The notes under the pieces were generated by a model. That model did not search any database. It worked only from the letters and a program-made list of their open reading frames with translations, and had not been told where the DNA came from. DNA of 56,236 nucleotides, counting the filler, from Bipalium vagum (lineage: Eukaryota): the NCBI GenBank assembly GCA_037834085.1. It is 3 parts of 3 records of this genome, joined end to end, with 100 filler letters (N's around TTAATTAATTAA, not from the genome) between each part and the next. Parts side by side here need not be neighbours in the genome. Positions count along the whole stretch, not along the records: positions 18,675 to 38,790 come from JBBMKC010260041.1; 2 more parts are not named here. One strand, written 5' to 3'. The translations under genes were made by a program, and so were the position numbers. Below, one piece after another: positions 23,205-55,547 of this stretch (its first letter is position 1; every line of letters starts with the position of its first letter).

Positions 23205-26200
23205 TCAATCTTTTTGACAATAACACTCCACGTCCATCATCAATTTTGGATTCAATTCACAGTCAATGTGGCAACGTTGATCGTGATTTTTCAGTCTGCA
23301 TCTCCAGAAAAAGGGAATATTCGTACGAAAAATGGCATCTGAATGATAATAATAAGGATCAGAAAATGCACTTCAATTTTTTTTTGTTTTAATTAATTTT
23401 AAAATTTTTTTGTCTTCTTAGTGATTTGGTTGATATGCAGCTCTTATATTGATAATTACGTCATTGAAAATTATTACTTTTTAATTTGATAATCTTAATT
23501 TACGATAATGACAATTTATGTCTCTAAATATGTATGTAATAAATTAATATATTATATATTTATTATTTTATACATTCTCTCTCTCCATTTATTGATATAT
23601 ATATATACTATTATGTAATGTTATTATTATTATAATTCTTTATCATTATTTAATATTATATAGGTTATATATTTTTTGTTAAATATTTTCTTTTAAAATA
23701 ATAATATAAATAAATAAAAGTCATGATATTCTTTGTTTAGGTAATTCTGGTTTTATTAATAAAGAACAAATTTTCTTGTCTATTTTATATGTATAACATA
23801 TCGGTGTTGACCATTCTTATTATTTGCCCGCACTATTAAATATGCTTTAATAGTTTATCAGCAACCTTTATTATTATCCTTTATTATATTAACATCAACT
23901 TAAAAAGAAAATTGTATAATTTACAAAATATTCAGGTATCCAAAAGAGTAATTGCGCTTTTTAAAAAACTTGATATCAAGATTTGGTATTTAGTAAGTAT
24001 TTTAAACAAATATCGTCATTTTTTCTTGTTTATTTAGAATAAAGATAGTATACATAGATATTAAATATCGCTACTTTTCATTGTATCACTTCAAACTTGG
24101 TTTTAAAGCAGCAGAATCGGCAAAATAAATTAATGCTGTTTGTGGAAAGAAGATTCTGAAGCTGAGGACAGCTCAATTTGGATTTCAACGTTTCAAATCC
24201 AGAAACGAAAGCGTTGAAGATGAAAAGCGTTCAGGAGGGCCGAAGAAGTTAAATGATGATGAGTTGATTCAAGATCTTTCTCAAAATTCAACTACATAGT
24301 GTTCAGAATTGTCAATAGAACTCAAATGCAATCAAGAATTTGTAAGAATACTTCTGAAATCTCTTGGATATACGAAAAAAGGTGTACCATTAATGTACAA
24401 GATTTATGGAACAGATAAAAGGAAATCATAAAAAAAATATCATCGATCTATAGCATCATACATCCCCAGAAGGATAACCGCAGTTTAGTCTTAATTTTGT
24501 TTATATTATACTCTGTTTAACAAAGTCACTAAACAAATTTTAGAGATTGAACGAAAAGTTTGCTTTTTGATTACAATAATTTCGAAATCGTTCTCTTATA
24601 AAAAAAACATTGTTTGCTGAATTGTTTCAAAGTCCATATATTGTTAAACCGAAATTCAAATGATACTTACTTTTGACTAGAGGTGTTCCGTATGCAGTTT
24701 TGTTTTTATGAATATTGTTCAATTCCTCTTGCTTGTTTCTTCCTATTTTTTTATACTGGTTATCTAATGCTGATAGAGCGTCTGCTTCAATGTCTATGTC
24801 CATGGATTGGGTTCGTTGAATCATTTTTAGAAGGAATTCATTATTGGTTTTCGGTGTAAGTTTTTCAAATGAATTATCCTGGTATAAATTTGTCATACAC
24901 TACTTTAGTTTTTGTTTTATTTAATTACTTCAGATAAAGGTAATTTTAATTGTGACAATCTTTCTGTTAACATCTGATGAAATTTATTGGGATCAAACTC
25001 TTCTGATTTCTTGCTACTGTAACTGTTTCTGGTGAAGGAATATTCATGGTACTCATGGACATCATCACTGAAAAAAAAAATAAATAAATAAATATTTCAT
25101 TAGATATTATTATGAAAATATTATTATATAAACTATAATTACTGTTATAATTAAAATTATAAATTACCAAAACAGATTAATAAGCTTTATTACTAATGAT
25201 ATAATTATGGTTACAATAACTTTTAGTACGGGATTCTAATATGAATCTCATTTATAATTGACGTTAAGCATACAATAGATCTGCTTTTAAACCTGCACAG
25301 GTGACTTTAAGCATGTTTAAAATTTAATCTAATGTATTATTTAAAATCGGATACAGGTAAGATTCAGTGAATGTTGTACATATATTTTCTAAATGAGATT
25401 TATATTTTGTTAAACACTGTTCTAATGTAAAAGTATAATAGATTTTCCTTAAGACAGGAGGAGTTGAAAGAATTCCCCAAAGGAAACAATAGCAAAATAG
25501 AGTGGTAATAGAAATTTTGTCAATAGTAATTAGATGGCATTGTTTACAACTACGGGAAGTTATTCCCTAGTGATTTTCAACATATGATTTGATGCAACTG
25601 AAAGTAAATGATGAAAATTTATACAAACATTGTATGAAGGGATTATTGTGAGAGAGAGGAGAAAAGCGAGTTGGATTAGTGTTTTCGTAATGCTTATATG
25701 TTTACTGTTTTCTAGGTATTATATTTCTATAATCTTCTTTTGAAAAGATCAAATTCTGCTTTAATAATAATAATAATAGTAATAATAGCTCCGAGAATTA
25801 GTAAGAGCTTTCTTTACTAAGCTATTTCAGAAAACAGCTGAAATGTCCTTTTGTTTTGTTTTTACAGAAATCCTGTTAGAGGTCTGATTTCATTGATTAC
25901 ATAATTGTTGGCTAAAGTGGGCAAGAACCAATATTTGTGAGAGACATTTCGATAATGTTGGTTTAAATAAATATTCCAATAGCCCCTAGCTGACAAATAT
26001 TCCTTAAGTAGCGGGCAAACATTCATATTCGTTATTTAGCCTAATCTTGGTTACACTTTCCTCCTATTCGATTCCAATTGGTTTCCAAACGTCTAGTCAT
26101 GAAACAAAAACAAAACTTGGTAAATATTAGAGAATGAGCTGCAACTGTTGAAATTTTCAACATTCTGGATCTCAACAATTCCAAAAGGAAAATAAAATTA

Positions 26201-27401
26201 TTAGAATAAATAGTAATTGCTGGTTATTAGTATTACCTCATTCAATTATACACTTAAAAGGTCTTTAGTATACTCATTTTATATTTTAAATCAATATGGA
26301 AATGTACAAAATACTTTTATTAAAAATTCTTAAAATATAAACCAGAAGAATATTATAATATATACAAACATATATTGAATTAAGAACAAGCATTTTGTGA
26401 GATTATTTTATAAATTCAGAGCATTATTAATCATATTAATGGAAAAATTAATAAAATCATTTTATTATATATTATTATAGAAAAACTTATTAAAATGTAT
26501 AACAATATTTATTCCTAAAAAAATATTAATAAATTAATAATAATTTTNNNNNNNNNNNNNNNNNNNNNNNNNNNNNNNNNNNNNNNNNNNNNNNNNNNNN
26601 NNNNNNNNNNNNNNNNNNNNNNNNNNNNNNNNNNNNNNNNNNNNNNNNNNNNNNNNNNNNNNNNNNNNNNNNNNNNNNNNNNNNNNNNNNNNNNNNNNNN
26701 NNNNNNNNNNNNNNNNNNNNNNNNNNNNNNNNNNNNNNNNNNNNNNNNNNNNNNNNNNNNNNNNNNNNNNNNNNNNNNNNNNNNNNNNNNNNGTTTTTAA
26801 TATTAAGGTTTTAAAATTATTTCAAAATCATAAAATAATGTTGAGGAGGCGTGATCAATATAATGGCGCATTACTTTTTATCATCGTCCTCCCATTTATT
26901 ATTAAACTTTAATTATAATAAAGATTTATAAGAATTCTAGACTAACGTTTTACATTTTGAGTCGCTTTTTATCAATGACTGATTTTGATTTTCTCGAATC
27001 TGTTTGAGTATAAGATGGTTTTGGAATTCAACAATGAACTTTTTCTCCAAATATTCTTCAACTTCATGGAAAGCTCGGTTAAAAATTAAATTATCTAAAT
27101 TGGATTCGTTCATCATTTTGATTTTCGTTCTGATAAATTTTCGTGTTTGATTACTGATGGAAATTGATGATAAAGAGTGATTTGGTCCAGTTTTTATATA
27201 TGTACGATAAATAGTTCGAATGAAACGCAAAGATGATTTTGCCGAATCAATTGGCATACGTTTTCTCAAATCTAAGTATGCTAAATAGAAATTGAGATTC
27301 TGCAATCCGGAATGTGGGTTTGTAATTTGGAGGAATTCTTTGAATTCGATAAATTTGTGAGAATCGTTTATCAGTTTTTGAAGATCAGTCGTTTCGGACA
27401 T
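23205..27401 (-). CDS. axin: Axin-like protein: exon 1 27401-26947 (RGS), exon 2 25067-24929 (GSK3-binding helix), exon 3 24878-24671 (degenerate beta-catenin motif), tentative exon 4 23338-23205; about 311 aa
   Basis: RGS with Axin-type signature (FIRTIYRTYIK..SNQTRKFIRTKI..LDNLIFNRAFHEV versus Axin1 LARAIYRKYI..KPATKSFIKGCI..IDPAMFDQAQTEI). The phase-2 splice AC|GTTAGT...TTTTCAG|T gives DPNKFHQMLTERLSQL (Axin1 EPQKFAEELIHRLEAV). A 50-nt phase-0 intron (24928-24879) leads to EADALSALDNQYKKI (Axin1 EENPESILDEHVQRV). Donor A|GTAAGT at 24670. Exon 4 is phase-compatible only. Confidence 0.85.
24055..24385 (+). mobile_element. Mariner N-terminal HTH remnant, antisense inside Axin intron 3
   Basis: YRYFSLYHFKLGFKAAESAK*INAVCGKKILKLRTAQFGFQRFKSRNESVEDEKRSGGPKKLNDDEL..LLKSLGYTKK. 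Confidence 0.88.
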
Positions 27402-27429
27402 AATAATTGTGTATTGAAAAGAAAAGGAG

Positions 27430-27535
27430 AGCCAATTTCAACTAAACCATCAAACATTAAATAGAATTGCTGTTTTTACTTCATTCTCATTGGCTGACGA
27501 CAAAGATTAGAACCACAGAAAACCAGCCAATCGCA
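27430..27535. promoter_or_regulatory. Putative Axin promoter with three CCAAT (NF-Y) boxes
   Basis: AGCCAAT at 27430-27436 (+), 27489-27495 (-, AGCCAATGA) and 27525-27531 (+, AGCCAATCG), all within about 130 nt upstream of the ATG at 27401. Confidence 0.6.
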
Positions 27536-28279
27536 CTATTAGTTGCGTCGCAGCATGAACGAACGTGAGGGAAAGAAAATTATTATTCTGAAGAAAAATT
27601 TTGTCGAAAAATTATTTTTTTTCTCTAAACATTTCCTTACATATTTTCTTACAGACTCTCTGCTCTATTACTATGGCCCATTGAATTTGAGCGCCAAATC
27701 ACTTCAATAGGTTACGATGAAAGTGTTGGTTCATTGTTTAAATGAATGCGTATTTTAATTAGAATTTTAATTGCTACTATTTATCAAATCAATGAGTAGT
27801 TTGTATATTTCATTTGCATGATCAATTTGCAGTATTTTGATTGAAGCTAGAAAATTGAGGATGAATATTTTTTTTAATATTAATTAGTTGATGCTTTGGG
27901 TTGGGGCCGGATCTCTATCGAGGTACCCATTGAAGCGAAAGATTGTGTTCCAGGTGAGCAGCTGTAATTGATGCAAAAAAGAATCCTCAATAAAATGGAA
28001 TTAAATCGATTTGTTAAAAATATGGAAATAATATTTAAATGATGTGTTAAAACGGATTTAATTTAAAACAGGCCCTTTGGTAATATGAGACTAGACGTAT
28101 TTGTATTTTCTAGGTCATATTAATAATTTGTATTGTAGACCTTTTTCTGGTTTTTTCTCTAGCATTGATATCAAAACAAAAAAAGGCGTCATATTTTTTA
28201 AAATTAATTTATCGAAATTATATTAATAATAAGTTGTTTTCAGTGTAGAAAATTAAATCCCTAGAAATTTTATTTTCAC

Positions 28280-28280
<1 letters not shown>

Positions 28281-28323
<43 letters not shown>

Positions 28324-28330
28324 TATTATT
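28281..28330. repeat. (ATT)n microsatellite
   Basis: Near-perfect trinucleotide run. Confidence 0.9.
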
Positions 28331-30596
28331 TTTATTATATTATATTATATTATTTTAGTTTGATTTTTTTCATTGTTTCTGTTTTGTTAATTTTTTGGTA
28401 TTTTAATGATTGCAAATGGAATTAAGGATTATTATTTTGTCATTTGAAACTCATCAAGTTTATGATATTTTTTATGTATAAATACCGATAAAAATTATTA
28501 CAAAAATAACAAACACGTAATTATTACATTAATATGGATGTATAAAAATAAAATAATATTCCCTTTCTTTTATCTATAATCCCTTTATGGATCTGATCCT
28601 TTTTCTCAGATAATCCTCTCAACGATATATATTACTTTAACATAAAATTTTATATATTTCTATTCTTAATCTTGTAAATTATAAATCTCTAATTCCAAAT
28701 ATACGAATTAATATTTGATATCTTCTCTAGTGCAATTAACATTTATTTCTTCTAGAATATTTTTGGGAATAAATCCGATAAAAACTGAAATATGCAATAC
28801 AAAAATAGAAATAAAACACAAAAAACTGTGTCATCTGAACATATTTTTATTTTAGACAATAAAAATAAAAACTTATAATTAATATCAAAAATCACTCCGA
28901 TTGCAGAAGACAATTACAGTATACATAACTGAAAGTGCTGTTCATAAAATTGTACATATCCTTTAAATGAGGTGGCTGAAATAAGAAAGAATTGGAGTTA
29001 CTGTATCTATCTCGTGTAAGTGAGGCTATTATTTACATTATTATTATATTACTCCAATAAAATAGAGATTTTTCAGTTCTCTCCAAAAAAATTAACTTTT
29101 ACAACGTACAAAGGTAAGAGAACTTTTAATTTTATTTTACCAAATCTTTAACATAAATATTTCATGAGTTATAAAACTCATTATCACCGTAATTTTGGAA
29201 ACTTTAACCAACGAAGTCCTAAACAAAGAAGTCATACGGGATTAAATCCATTGAAGAAGCCCTACCAAAAAATGGATTTGAGAATTTTTAATTCAACCAG
29301 TCACATCACTTCCCATTTAAGAGGCGCGCTTGCATTCAAAGTAAAACTGTGCTCTATGTAATTAACTTTCAAATCTGGATAAAATTTGTCTTAACCATAT
29401 CTAATAAACTGAAAATTATCAATATTTTTTTCAAATAAGAATCTCTAAATAGCACCAAATACATATCATGTATTAATTTTTAAGGATTATTATTATTATT
29501 ATTTATTATAGCATTATTTCTTCTTGATTATTTCTGATTACCCTTTAAAATTTGTTCTTCTCGAAAGGCATTATTTTTACTAATTTAAGTTTTATTATAT
29601 ATAGACGGTTTTGCTTAGACTTATGACATTAAGATATTAACATTTCTATACATAATATATAACAATATAAACATCAAAGTATCATTTCACTTTATACTAG
29701 AATATTTTGATGTTCTATCAACCATAGAATGATATGCACACAAGAAAATGTTGTGATTTTTGACTGTTATTTTTAATTTATTATTAGTAATTATTATGAA
29801 TTTCTAAAAAAGTAGAACACAAAAATATTGTCATTAAAAAATATTTGAATTAAATTAATTAAAGGAATTCGAAAATAAAAGTTACTAAAATATTAAATAT
29901 TAATGCTTGTAAAATGAAAATGAGCTGAATTTTATTTTTTTATTTTATTATTATTATAAATAAATAAAATTCCCTAAACTGGTTTCACAAAAATGTTAGA
30001 TCGATACCATTTCCAATAAGTTATAATATTTCAACCTAGAACAAGACTAGAAAAATTATAATATTTGATTTTTTTTTAATATTAAATAAAGAAAATATTA
30101 CATTGTTTAATATTTTTATTCTCTTAAAACCAAGTAATTAGAATTTTTAACAATATGAGAAAACATCTGAATAATAACTATCTTTTATTAAAGAAAAAAC
30201 TGATATTTTACTTCAATTAAATACATTTCATTCGCGTGTAAGAATTCCCTTCAAAATTGCTCCTAGTATTGTAAGAAGTCCTAGGGGACTTTCTAAGTTT
30301 TTTTTATATTCAGCTTGAAATGTGTTGAAATGCGTTGTTGTTTAAATCGTCCGTAAATTTTTAGTGAATAAGAAAATTTTCAATCTATAACTAAAACGTT
30401 ATGAATTATAATAAGGTTCTCTGGGAAAGAAATATAATTACCTGGAAATATTAGAATTGTGATCTTTCTTTACCTTTGCTGTTTCTCTTTACACTTTTCC
30501 CAAGCTTAATACGATTAACTCACGAAATATATGGGATCTAAAATCCTAATAAATCATATATAAACTTCCTGAGTAAAATTAGTCTGAAGATATTAG

Positions 30597-31945: not shown

Positions 31946-34009
31946 AAATATATTTTGATTGCTTAAGTTGTGCTAAATTGGGCTATTATATTTTAAAGTA
32001 TTTGATAAAAATCTTCCATTATTCTGGCATTAAAACCTAATATTATATGACTTTAAAATACTTTAATATTAAAAATAAAATTAATAATAATAATAATAGT
32101 ATAGATAATATTATTAATAATTATTATCATTGTAATAAATAATAATTAATAGTAATGATAATAAAAATAAAATTATTTTATTTACCGGAAATTTATTTAG
32201 ATATTTTATAAATCAATTTGTTTTAATCAAATGAACATATTCTAAACGAAACAAAATGAAAAACGAAAACACGAGAATTTTTTGAATAATGAATTCTGAT
32301 TTCCATTGATAATTTTCAAAAAAATCACAATCAAATATAATTATATTTACGGTTGATCAAATTATTAAAATTGATTAAATATAAATTATTGATCACATCA
32401 TTAACAAGAAATTGACATAAAAACGACTGCTCTGAATGATTTAATTGTGGAAGTGTATTGATTGACAATTTCCATTGGTTCCGACAAAGTTCAATTGATC
32501 CGGAAAGATTTTAATCTGAACAATTGAATCGTAATAAGAACAATAATTATTATCAATGATTATTTCCGACACTTCAGAACAAAACAGAAAGTTCATGAAA
32601 TTATTATATACATTTTTTATAAAGCCCTTACTTAATATCGTATGTCTATCTTATTCAGTTGACATCTTACCGAGGGGATATATAAAATCAATGAAATATA
32701 TCAATATCTCTTTATGTAGACAGTGATTTAGTTCTCGGAAATGAAGTGTTTCAAATTCTCCTCCTTGGGGACTGTAAGTAAATTAAAACATTATTAACAG
32801 GTGTCAGTCAACATATCCAAAAGACACGAAGAAACTACAACAGAAACAAGTTGAACTGAACAAACTTTGTCTGTATAACTGAGAAAAGTCTTGTAACATC
32901 TTCTCTCTGTCAAAGAAATGCTTGTCACAGAATGAGCAATTCTTTCAAGTGAAAAATTTTACCTAATATTTCAATCATTTTGTTTTTCGAACGACTTCCG
33001 GCTTTGCCTGGAGGCAGGAAACCGTGGCTAAATAAAATCATGCCTTTTCCCGATTAGATTTGTAACTTAAGGCCAGCACTAAATTGCATTGAGGTGATTA
33101 GTTTGGAGATTTGTTTTTTTTTCAACTATCAATTAGAACTCATTGTATATAAATATATATTGTCAAGGAAAATAGTTTTATTTGATTTTTTGTCTTTATA
33201 AAAAAATTAGCCAGAAGACAAACTTTGTTTAAATTAATTAATTAAATTTTTTTGAAATTATACTTATTAAGATTTAATAACCATTTCAAGGCTTTACTAT
33301 TTCTTGTAATATTTCTTGTTTTATTTAGTTCCCTTTGTATTTTTAGATCAATTGTTTTGTTTTTCTGACAAAAAAAATATTGATTTTTAATTATTGAAAT
33401 CATTTAATTATAGATATTATATAAATAGAATCCTTAAATGAGTAAATTTTCTGTGAAAAATAATTTCAAGACATTATTTTTCAAAACTTTCATTTCAACC
33501 TTGTTTGTTTCAAAGAATTTTTGTATAATTTTTACAATACTTAATGGAAAACTTTAAACTCTTGAAATTTATCATCAGTTCAATGAAAATAAAAAAATAA
33601 TATTAAATAAAATGTTTGCTTAATTTTAAGATAATTAAAACAAGTGAATACGATTTCTAAGTAATTTAAATTTTAACGATAACTTATTAATTATTTTTTT
33701 AATTGATGATTTTTTATCTATTATATTCCTAATTACTTTCATCTTTCTTAAAAATTAAAACAAAAAAATAATTAATTAATCTGAGTAATTGTCCTTTATT
33801 GAACAATTTTCGCAATGAGATTATTATGACATTTTAGTTAGTTCAGAAATTTTTGATAAAGATTAGAGTTTTACAGTTTTAAAATATAAGGTTTTCCATT
33901 AAGGACGATGCATTTTGTTTTTCGAATAAAAAGACTTTGATAAAACTTGAATATGAATAGAATATGAATAACATTTTTATTACAAACTAAAGTACACAGA
34001 TTACCATTA

Positions 34010-35887: not shown

Positions 35888-37010
35888 CTTATTACAATCA
35901 AAAGTCTGTATGTCCAAAATATGTGATTTGAATGCTTCTACAGCCTGTTCGGGACATGAAGATCATTGACCACGCTGTTTTTTATGGAACCAAATGTGAA
36001 GAAGTCATTTGGTGCCAAATCAAGATTAGATGGATGGCTTAATAATTCAACATTTTGAGTCCTCAAAAATTCGATTGTTTTATGGACTATATGTGAAATG
36101 GTATTATCATGATGAAGCATAATGAAGCATTTTGAGTTGTTTTTTCTCCATTTGTTGAGGACTTCAAGCAAGCAAACTGTGGTGTTCCAATTCGAAGTAA
36201 CTTTACGACGATCATCTAAAGAAATTGTAGCGACATGAAGTGATTTGGCTACGAAACATACAACAATTTGCTTGGAGGTGTTCCGAGATCGAACAACTTC
36301 TGTTGGTAATTTTTCTTCCTGAATGACCCAAATAGTTAACTGCTGTTTTGTTTCTGGTTCATATGAATAAATCCATGATTCATCGCTACTGACGATGTCA
36401 TAAACATGTTTTGAGGTTCCCTGCCTAAATTTATCAATAACAGTTTTGGAACAATTAACGAGATCTCGTTTTTGATCAATTGTAAAGATATTTTGTATCT
36501 TACGAAAACATAGCTTTTTAACACCCAAGTATTCATGTAAAATAGAATGGATTATGGTCAATGATGTCTGAATTTCATCATATGTTGTCCGACGATCTTC
36601 TTCAATTAATTTCCGAAAAATTTCAATATTTTCATCGGATACACTTGTTTTTGGATGACCTTCAATGAAATTATGACCCCAAGAGAGGCCCCAGACTTAA
36701 GTTCATGAAACCATCGATACACTTTAGTTTTCGATCGAGCATCATCAGGAAATGTCAAATTTAGGGGATTGAGAGATTGATGTTGTGTCAATTCGCATCG
36801 GAAATCATATAAAATCATTTTTCAAAACTTTTCCATTGATAGATTCATATTTTCCGCTTTATATCATATTTGAATGTAAATATTTATTTAAACAAATGCG
36901 ATTTTTATTATTAGATAAAAGTAATAGAATTAAAATTTTAGGCTCATATTTTTGATTTTTTACTAAACCTTTCCATATTCTCCATTACAAAAACTTTTCG
37001 ACTGCAACTA
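35888..37010 (-). mobile_element. Near-full-length mariner (DD34D) pseudogene, 3'-truncated
   Basis: ATG at about 36849 (MNLS..MILYDFRC..VYRWFHEL), DIVSSDESWIYSYEPETKQQ, IMLHHDNT, DLAPNDFFTF. Degenerate left TIR at about 36985-37010 (aaaacttttcgactg). Similarity to the 9045-9511 copy stops at 35888. Confidence 0.92.
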
Positions 37011-38790: not shown

Positions 38791-38890
38791 NNNNNNNNNN
38801 NNNNNNNNNNNNNNNNNNNNNNNNNNNNNNNNNNTTAATTAATTAANNNNNNNNNNNNNNNNNNNNNNNNNNNNNNNNNNNNNNNNNNNN
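38791..38890. other. Artificial scaffold spacer (44N + TTAATTAATTAA + 44N)
   Basis: Same 100-nt structure as 18575-18674. Confidence 0.95.
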
Positions 38891-40249
38891 TTATTAATTT
38901 TATTTTTATTATTATATTATTATTATTAATTTTATTTTTATTATTATATTATTATTATTGTTAATTTATTTTATTAATGATTATTACTATTATTTTATTT
39001 CTGTTACCTGAAATGATAAATAATAATACTTAAATGTGATTTAGTAAAACAAAATTTTTCCCAAATCACCGCGACTTGGTTTGAAACAAAAATCTGTAAC
39101 ATAAACATTATTAATTCGTTACTTCAGCTAAACAAACAGAATCATTACAATTAATAATTTTGAAACTTTTTTCCTAGAAAATATATTTAAACATATTTCG
39201 TTTCAAGATTTCAAGACAGAAGGCAAAATTAATTGATTTAAACAATGTTAAACTTACCGAATTAACAAAAATCAAAAGGAAAAAATGAAATGGGAAAAGT
39301 TTGAAAAATTAATATTTAATGAAGATTCGTTTTCGACTAAAGAGGAACAAACATAAAAATTTTAAAATGCTTTGCTTTGTTTTAATGAATATCAAAGACA
39401 ATTACATTTTACATCTCAATTAGTGTAGTTAAAACAATAAAAAGAGGGGAAAGATTTTTGTTACTGTTTTGTTAAAAATCCTCTTAATTTTCTCCACTGG
39501 AATATCATTCTCATTTCAACCGTTTCCTCTCTATTATTGAGAATTGTTAATTTGCTTCTATTTTTGGTAAATCGCTGAATTGTGCCCCCTGCAAATCGTC
39601 GTTTGTCAATCAAAGTTTGAGGACATGAATCTCGAAATCTCAGTCAATCCCGTTTACTTGACGACTTTTCATAATATTGTCTCCGAAGAAGATTATTAGT
39701 CCCAATATGTGATTAAGCTGAATTATGATATTAATTAATCTATTAATTATACCACAACAATATTTTTGGGAAAAATAACGAATTTTTCACACAATGTTCT
39801 CAATAAATCTTATTTATCATGTTTAAGATATGTTTACCTGGTGTTGAGGACATCAATTTTTAGCTTTCTTTCACCGTAGATATAAATTGGGAAAGGGGAT
39901 CCTTTTATTATTTAATAATAATAATCAGTATTATTATTATTATTAGCAACAAACGGTTTGAAATCAATAAAAAAGACATTTTAATAACATAAATAACCTT
40001 AATTTACAAACTTATTTTATCAAACTACGGGATTTCAATCTATCATTATAAATTTTAGAAAATACTCTTCAATTTTAACATTAATTTATTATATTTTAGA
40101 ATACATTAATCAATATATTAATTAAATTCTGTAATACATACTCCATACTACCTACAAACCATAAAAAAGTGGATTTGTTTTTTTACAGTAAATACGAAAA
40201 AAAAGGTTATATTTTTCAAATATATCAACAATGATGTAATATTAAAAGA

Positions 40250-55027: not shown

Positions 55028-55107
55028 CGATAATTATTATGCGTACCATTATTTTATGAAATCAGTTGAGTAAAAATAAAAATATAAAATCAATAAAATC
55101 AATTCAG

Positions 55108-55547
55108 TCTGCTTTATTGGCGATGATGGATCCAATTATACTCATTTGATGATGTTAAGCAATTCAACGTACACTCCGATGATACACAATTCCGGATCGC
55201 CGACACCCCAGAGACAAAGCATTCCAAACAAGGACAACAATCAATCGAACATGGATCATAATATATTCAATTGTGAAAATTTCCTAAATCCATCAGCGTA
55301 TATGCCTCCCATCCCAGTGTCGACAAAATCCCATATGAAAGGTTTCCTAACTTCACCTCACTATAAAGAGACAGAAAACTATGCGACACTAAAAGACAAA
55401 ATTCATGTTGATTTTAATTCAGTCAACATTGATCGAAATAATCACGCAATATCAATTACAAATCATAGTAATCCCATAGAAAATCCAGATTTCTGTCAAA
55501 AACAGAGAGATTTCAACTCTCCATATGTTACATCAAGTTTCGTTTAA
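55108..55547 (+). CDS. Terminal coding exon: disordered N/S/P-rich tail ending in the class I PDZ ligand SSFV (protocadherin-tail-like)
   Basis: Acceptor aattcag| at 55107 (phase 1); about 145 open codons with NYATL and YVTSSFV*. The SSFV ending recalls flatworm protocadherin tails (from memory). No cadherin repeats are present in the window. Confidence 0.6.

Follow-up and report, generated by a model that had tools for sequence, protein, structure and literature searches.

The window, a 56,236-nt stretch of Bipalium vagum DNA, contains a fast-evolved, shrunken Axin gene that encodes an RGS domain, a predicted GSK3-binding helix and a putative, worn beta-catenin-binding site, and no DIX domain was detectable on the piece that carries it. 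We put the chances at about even that this gene is a DIX-less Axin paralog, presumably standing beside a full-length Axin, whose product would bind GSK3 but would neither polymerise nor respond to Dishevelled. True loss of DIX by the gene was graded no higher because the piece ends 6.0 kb beyond exon 3 and because the gene model is predicted.

Gene structure on the middle piece

Three pieces of AT-rich animal DNA, separated by identical 100-nt artificial joins, make up the window. As both spacers are the same join the Axin gene is confined to the 20.1-kb middle piece (JBBMKC010260041.1), where it lies on the minus strand and faces the first of the two spacers (Table 1). Enumeration of GT-AG joins produced the first three exons, which together hold 267 codons and end in phase 1, and addition of exon 4 resulted in a predicted Axin of 311 aa with four exons, no stop interrupting the frame and GT-AG ends throughout. 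The initial annotation had spliced three ORF fragments by hand into an Axin-like protein and had arrived at about 311 aa using the same terminal exon. The joins were recovered by enumeration, the RGS domain and GSK3 helix were both matched, and re-splicing gave the same predicted length. Upstream of the ATG an in-frame stop lies close by and no usable acceptor was found beyond it, suggesting that position 27401 is the likely start, and with this start the predicted protein has no N-terminal arm ahead of the RGS domain. The sequenced part of intron 1 (25068-26547) yielded 8 internal exon candidates, none of them convincing.

Table 1. Positions of the predicted Axin gene and its surroundings, and public Axin models that stop before DIX
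Feature	Position or identifier	Strand	Basis or remark
Artificial join, 100 nt	18575-18674	.	Pattern identical to 38791-38890
Exon 1: ATG and RGS domain of Axin type (aa 5-126)	26947-27401	-	Pfam, PDB, AF2/Foldseek
Intron 1, 1.9 kb (1879 nt), containing 245-N gap 26548-26792	25068-26946	-	GT-AG join enumeration
Exon 2: predicted GSK3-binding helix, D-P-x-x-F-x3-L-x3-L from aa 177	24929-25067	-	Profile and invariant residues
Exon 3: degenerate beta-catenin-binding site at about aa 230-245; strong phase-1 donor	24671-24878	-	Positional alignment, columns
Intron 3, 1.3 kb (1332 nt), containing plus-strand mariner transposase remnant at about 24000-24300	23339-24670	-	HTH_48
Candidate last exon (exon 4), 44 aa, 5 Cys, TGA stop	23205-23338	-	Best of 51 candidates, phase
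Six public Axin models that reach the GSK3 helix and stop before DIX	P0002, P0013, P0027, P0037, P0073, P0078		Probable annotation truncations

Several other features were observed in the window. The mariner transposase remnant in intron 3 is of Mos1 type (HTH_48, E 0.014, below the Pfam cutoff), and a second remnant at 35938-36821 on the minus strand (HTH_48, E 4e-4, again below the cutoff) resembles a broken near-whole ORF. Past the Axin stop lies a GC-richer block (22700-23100, GC 0.34-0.42) with a 90-codon minus-strand ORF that had no Pfam match and is perhaps a mobile-element remnant. Repeats in 18675-28500 consisted of AT-rich simple sequence only. A dispersed repeat of about 105 nt occurs at 28266-28370, 38896-38999, 32071-32174 and 7821-7923, with copies 75-82% alike, and the copy upstream of the Axin gene overlaps an (AAT)n tract. 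Other ORFs included a 446-codon ORF with an upstream 96-codon ORF at 10815-12456 on the minus strand, which had an unusually high GC3 of 0.56 and no Pfam match and which may resemble CCDC142. A 431-codon basic ORF at 14649-15944 on the plus strand matched nothing but Formyl_trans_C, weakly and below the cutoff (E 0.0017), and a Ser/Asn/Pro-rich ORF near the window end (55080-55547, plus strand) without a Pfam match is probably an exon of a further gene. Searches of the window for tRNA and Rfam families returned no match.

RGS domain, GSK3 helix and candidate beta-catenin site

Exon 1 matched the Pfam RGS family (PF00615, E 4.4e-11), and the top two of five matches in a PDB sequence search were Axin RGS domains (E 4e-4 and 5e-4), the best being 1dk8. 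An AF2 alignment-guided model of the domain reached a pLDDT of 90, and Foldseek with this model again placed the Axin RGS 1dk8 at rank 1, nearly tied with other RGS domains. Matches to exon 1 in the ESM Atlas were generic RGS matches, all below 0.9. A search of 1.84 billion cluster representatives returned two matches, one an Axin (Schistosoma bovis, E 3.5e-4) and one a spurious repeat protein. No relative of exon 1 was found among 369 longer candidates, and none of 268 pattern matches in metagenome contigs was confirmed. A canonical G-alpha GAP RGS (R4/R7/RZ) was also considered and was rejected, as RGS7 matched more weakly than Axin in the PDB sequence search (E 0.7 versus 4e-4) and an Axin GSK3 helix lies downstream.

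The RGS domain keeps 13 of 28 near-invariant columns, with 11 changed and 4 unaligned at the ends. On human numbering, by our own mapping of the APC surface, A120 is conserved, T replaces A143, Y replaces C121 and D replaces the invariant G123. The available portion of PMC11063763 assigns both A120 and A143 to the APC interface, with C121F listed as damaging. The RGS is changed at positions beside this interface, the APC-binding surface itself being a predicted one. Phylogenetic placement was assessed using an RGS tree of 30 rows, in which partial models and near-duplicates among the 77 retrieved homologs were omitted (P0001 had been left out as spurious). The query had a branch length of 4.25 as compared to a median of 0.19 and joined neither neodermatan paralog clade, and with this long branch its placement is unsure.

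Of 3620 six-frame pieces scored against a GSK3-helix profile built from 15 full-length Axins, exon 2 ranked first, with 15.1 bits and E 0.003. The P, F, L and L of the helix are invariant in all 34 matched homologs and all four are kept in exon 2. A stretch of exon 3 was assigned to the beta-catenin-binding motif by positional alignment, and comparison to 33 homologs demonstrated that its Leu is kept and that its His and three more invariant residues are lost; the beta-catenin profile by itself gave no match to this site. According to the accessible part of 10.1101/2024.10.27.620500, Leu and His are the two critical residues of the motif and Leu-only motifs are tied to weak binding. This degenerate site had been missed by the initial annotation and is an addition to it. 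Among the binding sites, every invariant residue is intact in the GSK3 helix alone, and binding of GSK3 is predicted from these residues. Exons 2, 3 and 4 gave no meaningful match when searched by sequence in the PDB. The linker between the RGS domain and the GSK3 helix is 49 aa as compared to 142-940 aa in 37 homologs, so that compaction is seen together with divergence in the form of the long RGS branch, the 13 kept RGS columns and the single kept beta-catenin residue of five.

Absence of a detectable DIX domain

The Pfam DIX model matched none of the 70 minus-strand ORFs of at least 25 aa in 18675-26550 at E<=10. With our own DIX profile, scores across the whole window did not exceed 7.3 bits, and the best match fell on another piece. 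When exon 3 was extended by one or two further exons (1367 splice extensions) the best DIX score was 4.3 bits, a value spanned by the 11 control stretches, which scored up to 11.4 bits. The earlier reading of the sequence, that no recognisable DIX lies between position 24670 and the spacer, agrees with these searches. The power of the searches was assessed in two ways. Against the RGS profile, 40-aa tiles from this RGS exceeded 7.3 bits, the noise ceiling for DIX, in 19 of 20 cases, so that DIX exons worn to an equal degree would often be detectable on the piece. Simulated DIX halves were detected in 91% of cases at 35% identity, 63% at 28% and 32% at 20% (150 trials). Based on the profile power in these trials a normal DIX on the 20.1-kb piece is unlikely, and a heavily worn DIX may still be present at a search power of 32-91%.

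The gene could also be an ordinary diverged Axin that was cut by a fragmented assembly, with its DIX exons past position 18674 and with exon 4 a chance ORF or an internal or alternative last exon. We consider this possible but doubtful. It fits with a piece of 20 kb that ends so soon past exon 3 and with introns that carry transposon remnants, and it fits with the public record. Thirty-seven of the 77 homologs extend to the GSK3 helix and 31 of these have DIX, while the other six end abruptly and look like truncated gene models, one of them labelled partial. At least two of the six have congeners with DIX (S. bovis versus S. haematobium and T. solium versus T. crassiceps). With 6 of 37 public models apparently truncated before DIX, artefacts of this kind are common. 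C. elegans PRY-1 and AXL-1 also keep both RGS and DIX despite strong divergence, as described in the available part of PMC6956378. However, a cut gene demands an intron of at least 4.5-6 kb, as compared to 1879, 50 and 1332 nt for the other three, which are contained with their exons in 4.2 kb. It also demands that the best exon candidate fell in the right phase by chance.

Identity of the candidate last exon

Exon 4 ranked first of 51 minus-strand exon candidates in the 6 kb downstream and scored above all 64 plus-strand candidates. Its phase matches the requirement of exon 3 and its acceptor is strong, as judged with an acceptor filter that was hand-made after the real sites had been seen. 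The initial annotation had chosen this exon for its nearest acceptor; the site was upheld and is now better grounded by its rank and the required phase, with the splicing itself still predicted. Under a codon model whose training set was limited to about 3.8 kb of other ORFs, exon 4 had a coding score of 10.3 bits. Every tile of exons 1-3 except one scored lower, and against 160 GC-matched stop-free stretches the score lies in the top 4.4%. In a frame-margin test exon 4 did not stand out, as 65% of nulls were equally high. The interior of the exon contains 7 GT sites, none of which is a consensus-strength donor, and the first AATAAA is found 326 nt downstream. Together these data provide moderate support for exon 4 as the true last exon.

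Alternatively, the end of exon 3 and exon 4 together might form a shortened DIX, no longer recognisable after divergence but still able to fold and polymerise, which we regard as improbable. The tail is at the position where DIX would begin in a compacted Axin, a free alignment places the end of exon 3 and exon 4 colinearly on DIX, and a C-terminus-anchored alignment gave exon 4 the best DIX score among 32 alternative last exons. A single-sequence model of exon 4 also showed four beta-strands. However, the anchored alignment reached only p=0.22 as compared to 300 shuffles, and about 25 of 82 profile positions would need to be deleted. HHalign gave exon 4 a probability of 0.4% to DIX and the tail no more than 0.4%, under the top 15 of 321 random ORFs. 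The single-sequence model had a pLDDT of 54, and in a comparison with 48161 chains no match exceeded Z 2.3, which is weak evidence either way, and the ESM Atlas returned no match for exon 4. The comparison of folds that had been proposed as a check on this exon recognised no DIX, by HHalign or with the single-sequence model. A likeness by eye between the phase-2 frame of exon 4 and the last DIX exon was rejected, as that frame holds stops and gave an HHalign probability of 0.2%.

A decaying Axin duplicate without function would fit the very long branch and the loss of several motifs and is very unlikely, as 311 codons with three canonical junctions contain no stop or frameshift despite about 28% RGS identity and the invariant GSK3-helix residues are kept; the open frames, canonical splice sites and predicted RGS model with a pLDDT of 90 argue against a pseudogene.

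Discussion

DIX polymerisation is regarded as central to the efficiency of Axin and to its shut-off by Dishevelled. A natural DIX-less Axin, if true, would be an evolved test of what Axin does without DIX, a point on which experiments disagree. Fly Axin without DIX was non-functional alone and was complemented by APC variants (PMC5221518, in the part available), whereas Nematostella Axin without DIX rescued the sea urchin Axin knockdown (10.1101/2024.10.27.620500, section 8), suggesting that the direction of effect could go either way. In section 27 of PMC11063763, C-terminal truncations of human Axin lost activity in proportion to the part removed, and partial function is possible. The isolated Nematostella GSK3 helix binds GSK3 and activates Wnt targets (section 8 of 10.1101/2024.10.27.620500).

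If the gene is a DIX-less paralog, its product would most likely titrate GSK3 away from full-length Axin and mildly raise beta-catenin, as only the GSK3 helix is fully intact, with the His of the beta-catenin site lost and the RGS altered beside the APC interface. Overexpression of the helix by itself has this effect. We favour this somewhat over a weak destruction scaffold which Wnt could not switch off. A Dvl-insensitive scaffold or an APC/GSK3 decoy had been suggested in the initial annotation. The GSK3 half of this idea is strengthened by the four kept invariant helix residues, and the APC decoy is weakened by the 15 of 28 RGS columns that are changed or unaligned. More tentatively, and at odds that we would place against it, a natural mini-Axin paralog that lost both DIX and the N-terminal arm and whose binding of APC and beta-catenin became weaker could serve as a Dishevelled-insensitive GSK3 trap that tunes Wnt levels in a flatworm lineage. 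In flatworms the Wnt level sets head-tail identity, and such a mini-Axin, if true, would be a candidate new dial on that level. If DIX merely lies on another scaffold the gene would be just an unusually small, diverged Axin.

In the literature searched, as far as the sources were available, no natural DIX-less Axin gene was found; tapeworm Axin, RGS-SAMP work and preprint supplements may bear on novelty. DIX-less Axins that were engineered or come from tumours share the domain set of the query, as does the isolated GSK3 helix (GID), but these are constructs or mutations and not a natural gene. A glass-sponge Axin without the beta-catenin region is described in the accessible text of PMC5684314, and two Axins each are mentioned for Echinococcus and in a catenulid-focused preprint, each source being available in part.

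The neodermatan Axins, which include the best single match to the query (Schistosoma bovis RTG83300.1, P0002), likewise carry a GSK3 helix of the D-P-x-x-F form downstream of an Axin-type RGS. They form two paralog groups in the tree, and the RGS of the second group is near the N-terminus (aa 7-52), like that of the query. In contrast, complete neodermatan Axins span 820-1430 aa, as compared to 311 aa for the query, and have both DIX and an intact beta-catenin site; the query RGS is only 22-29% identical to theirs. The likely nearest model-organism context for the query is planarian AxinA/AxinB (Schmidtea mediterranea). Planarian AxinA and AxinB both carry RGS and DIX. No match named as a planarian Axin was among the homologs retrieved, and axinB is named in the available part of PMC4046745. 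Natural loss of domains has precedents in the Wnt pathway, namely planarian beta-catenin-3/4, which are paralogs with domain loss (PMC5643146), and the DIX-less nematode forms of Dishevelled (PMC3564985). Both are, in the parts of these papers available, different proteins from Axin and serve as precedents of principle only.
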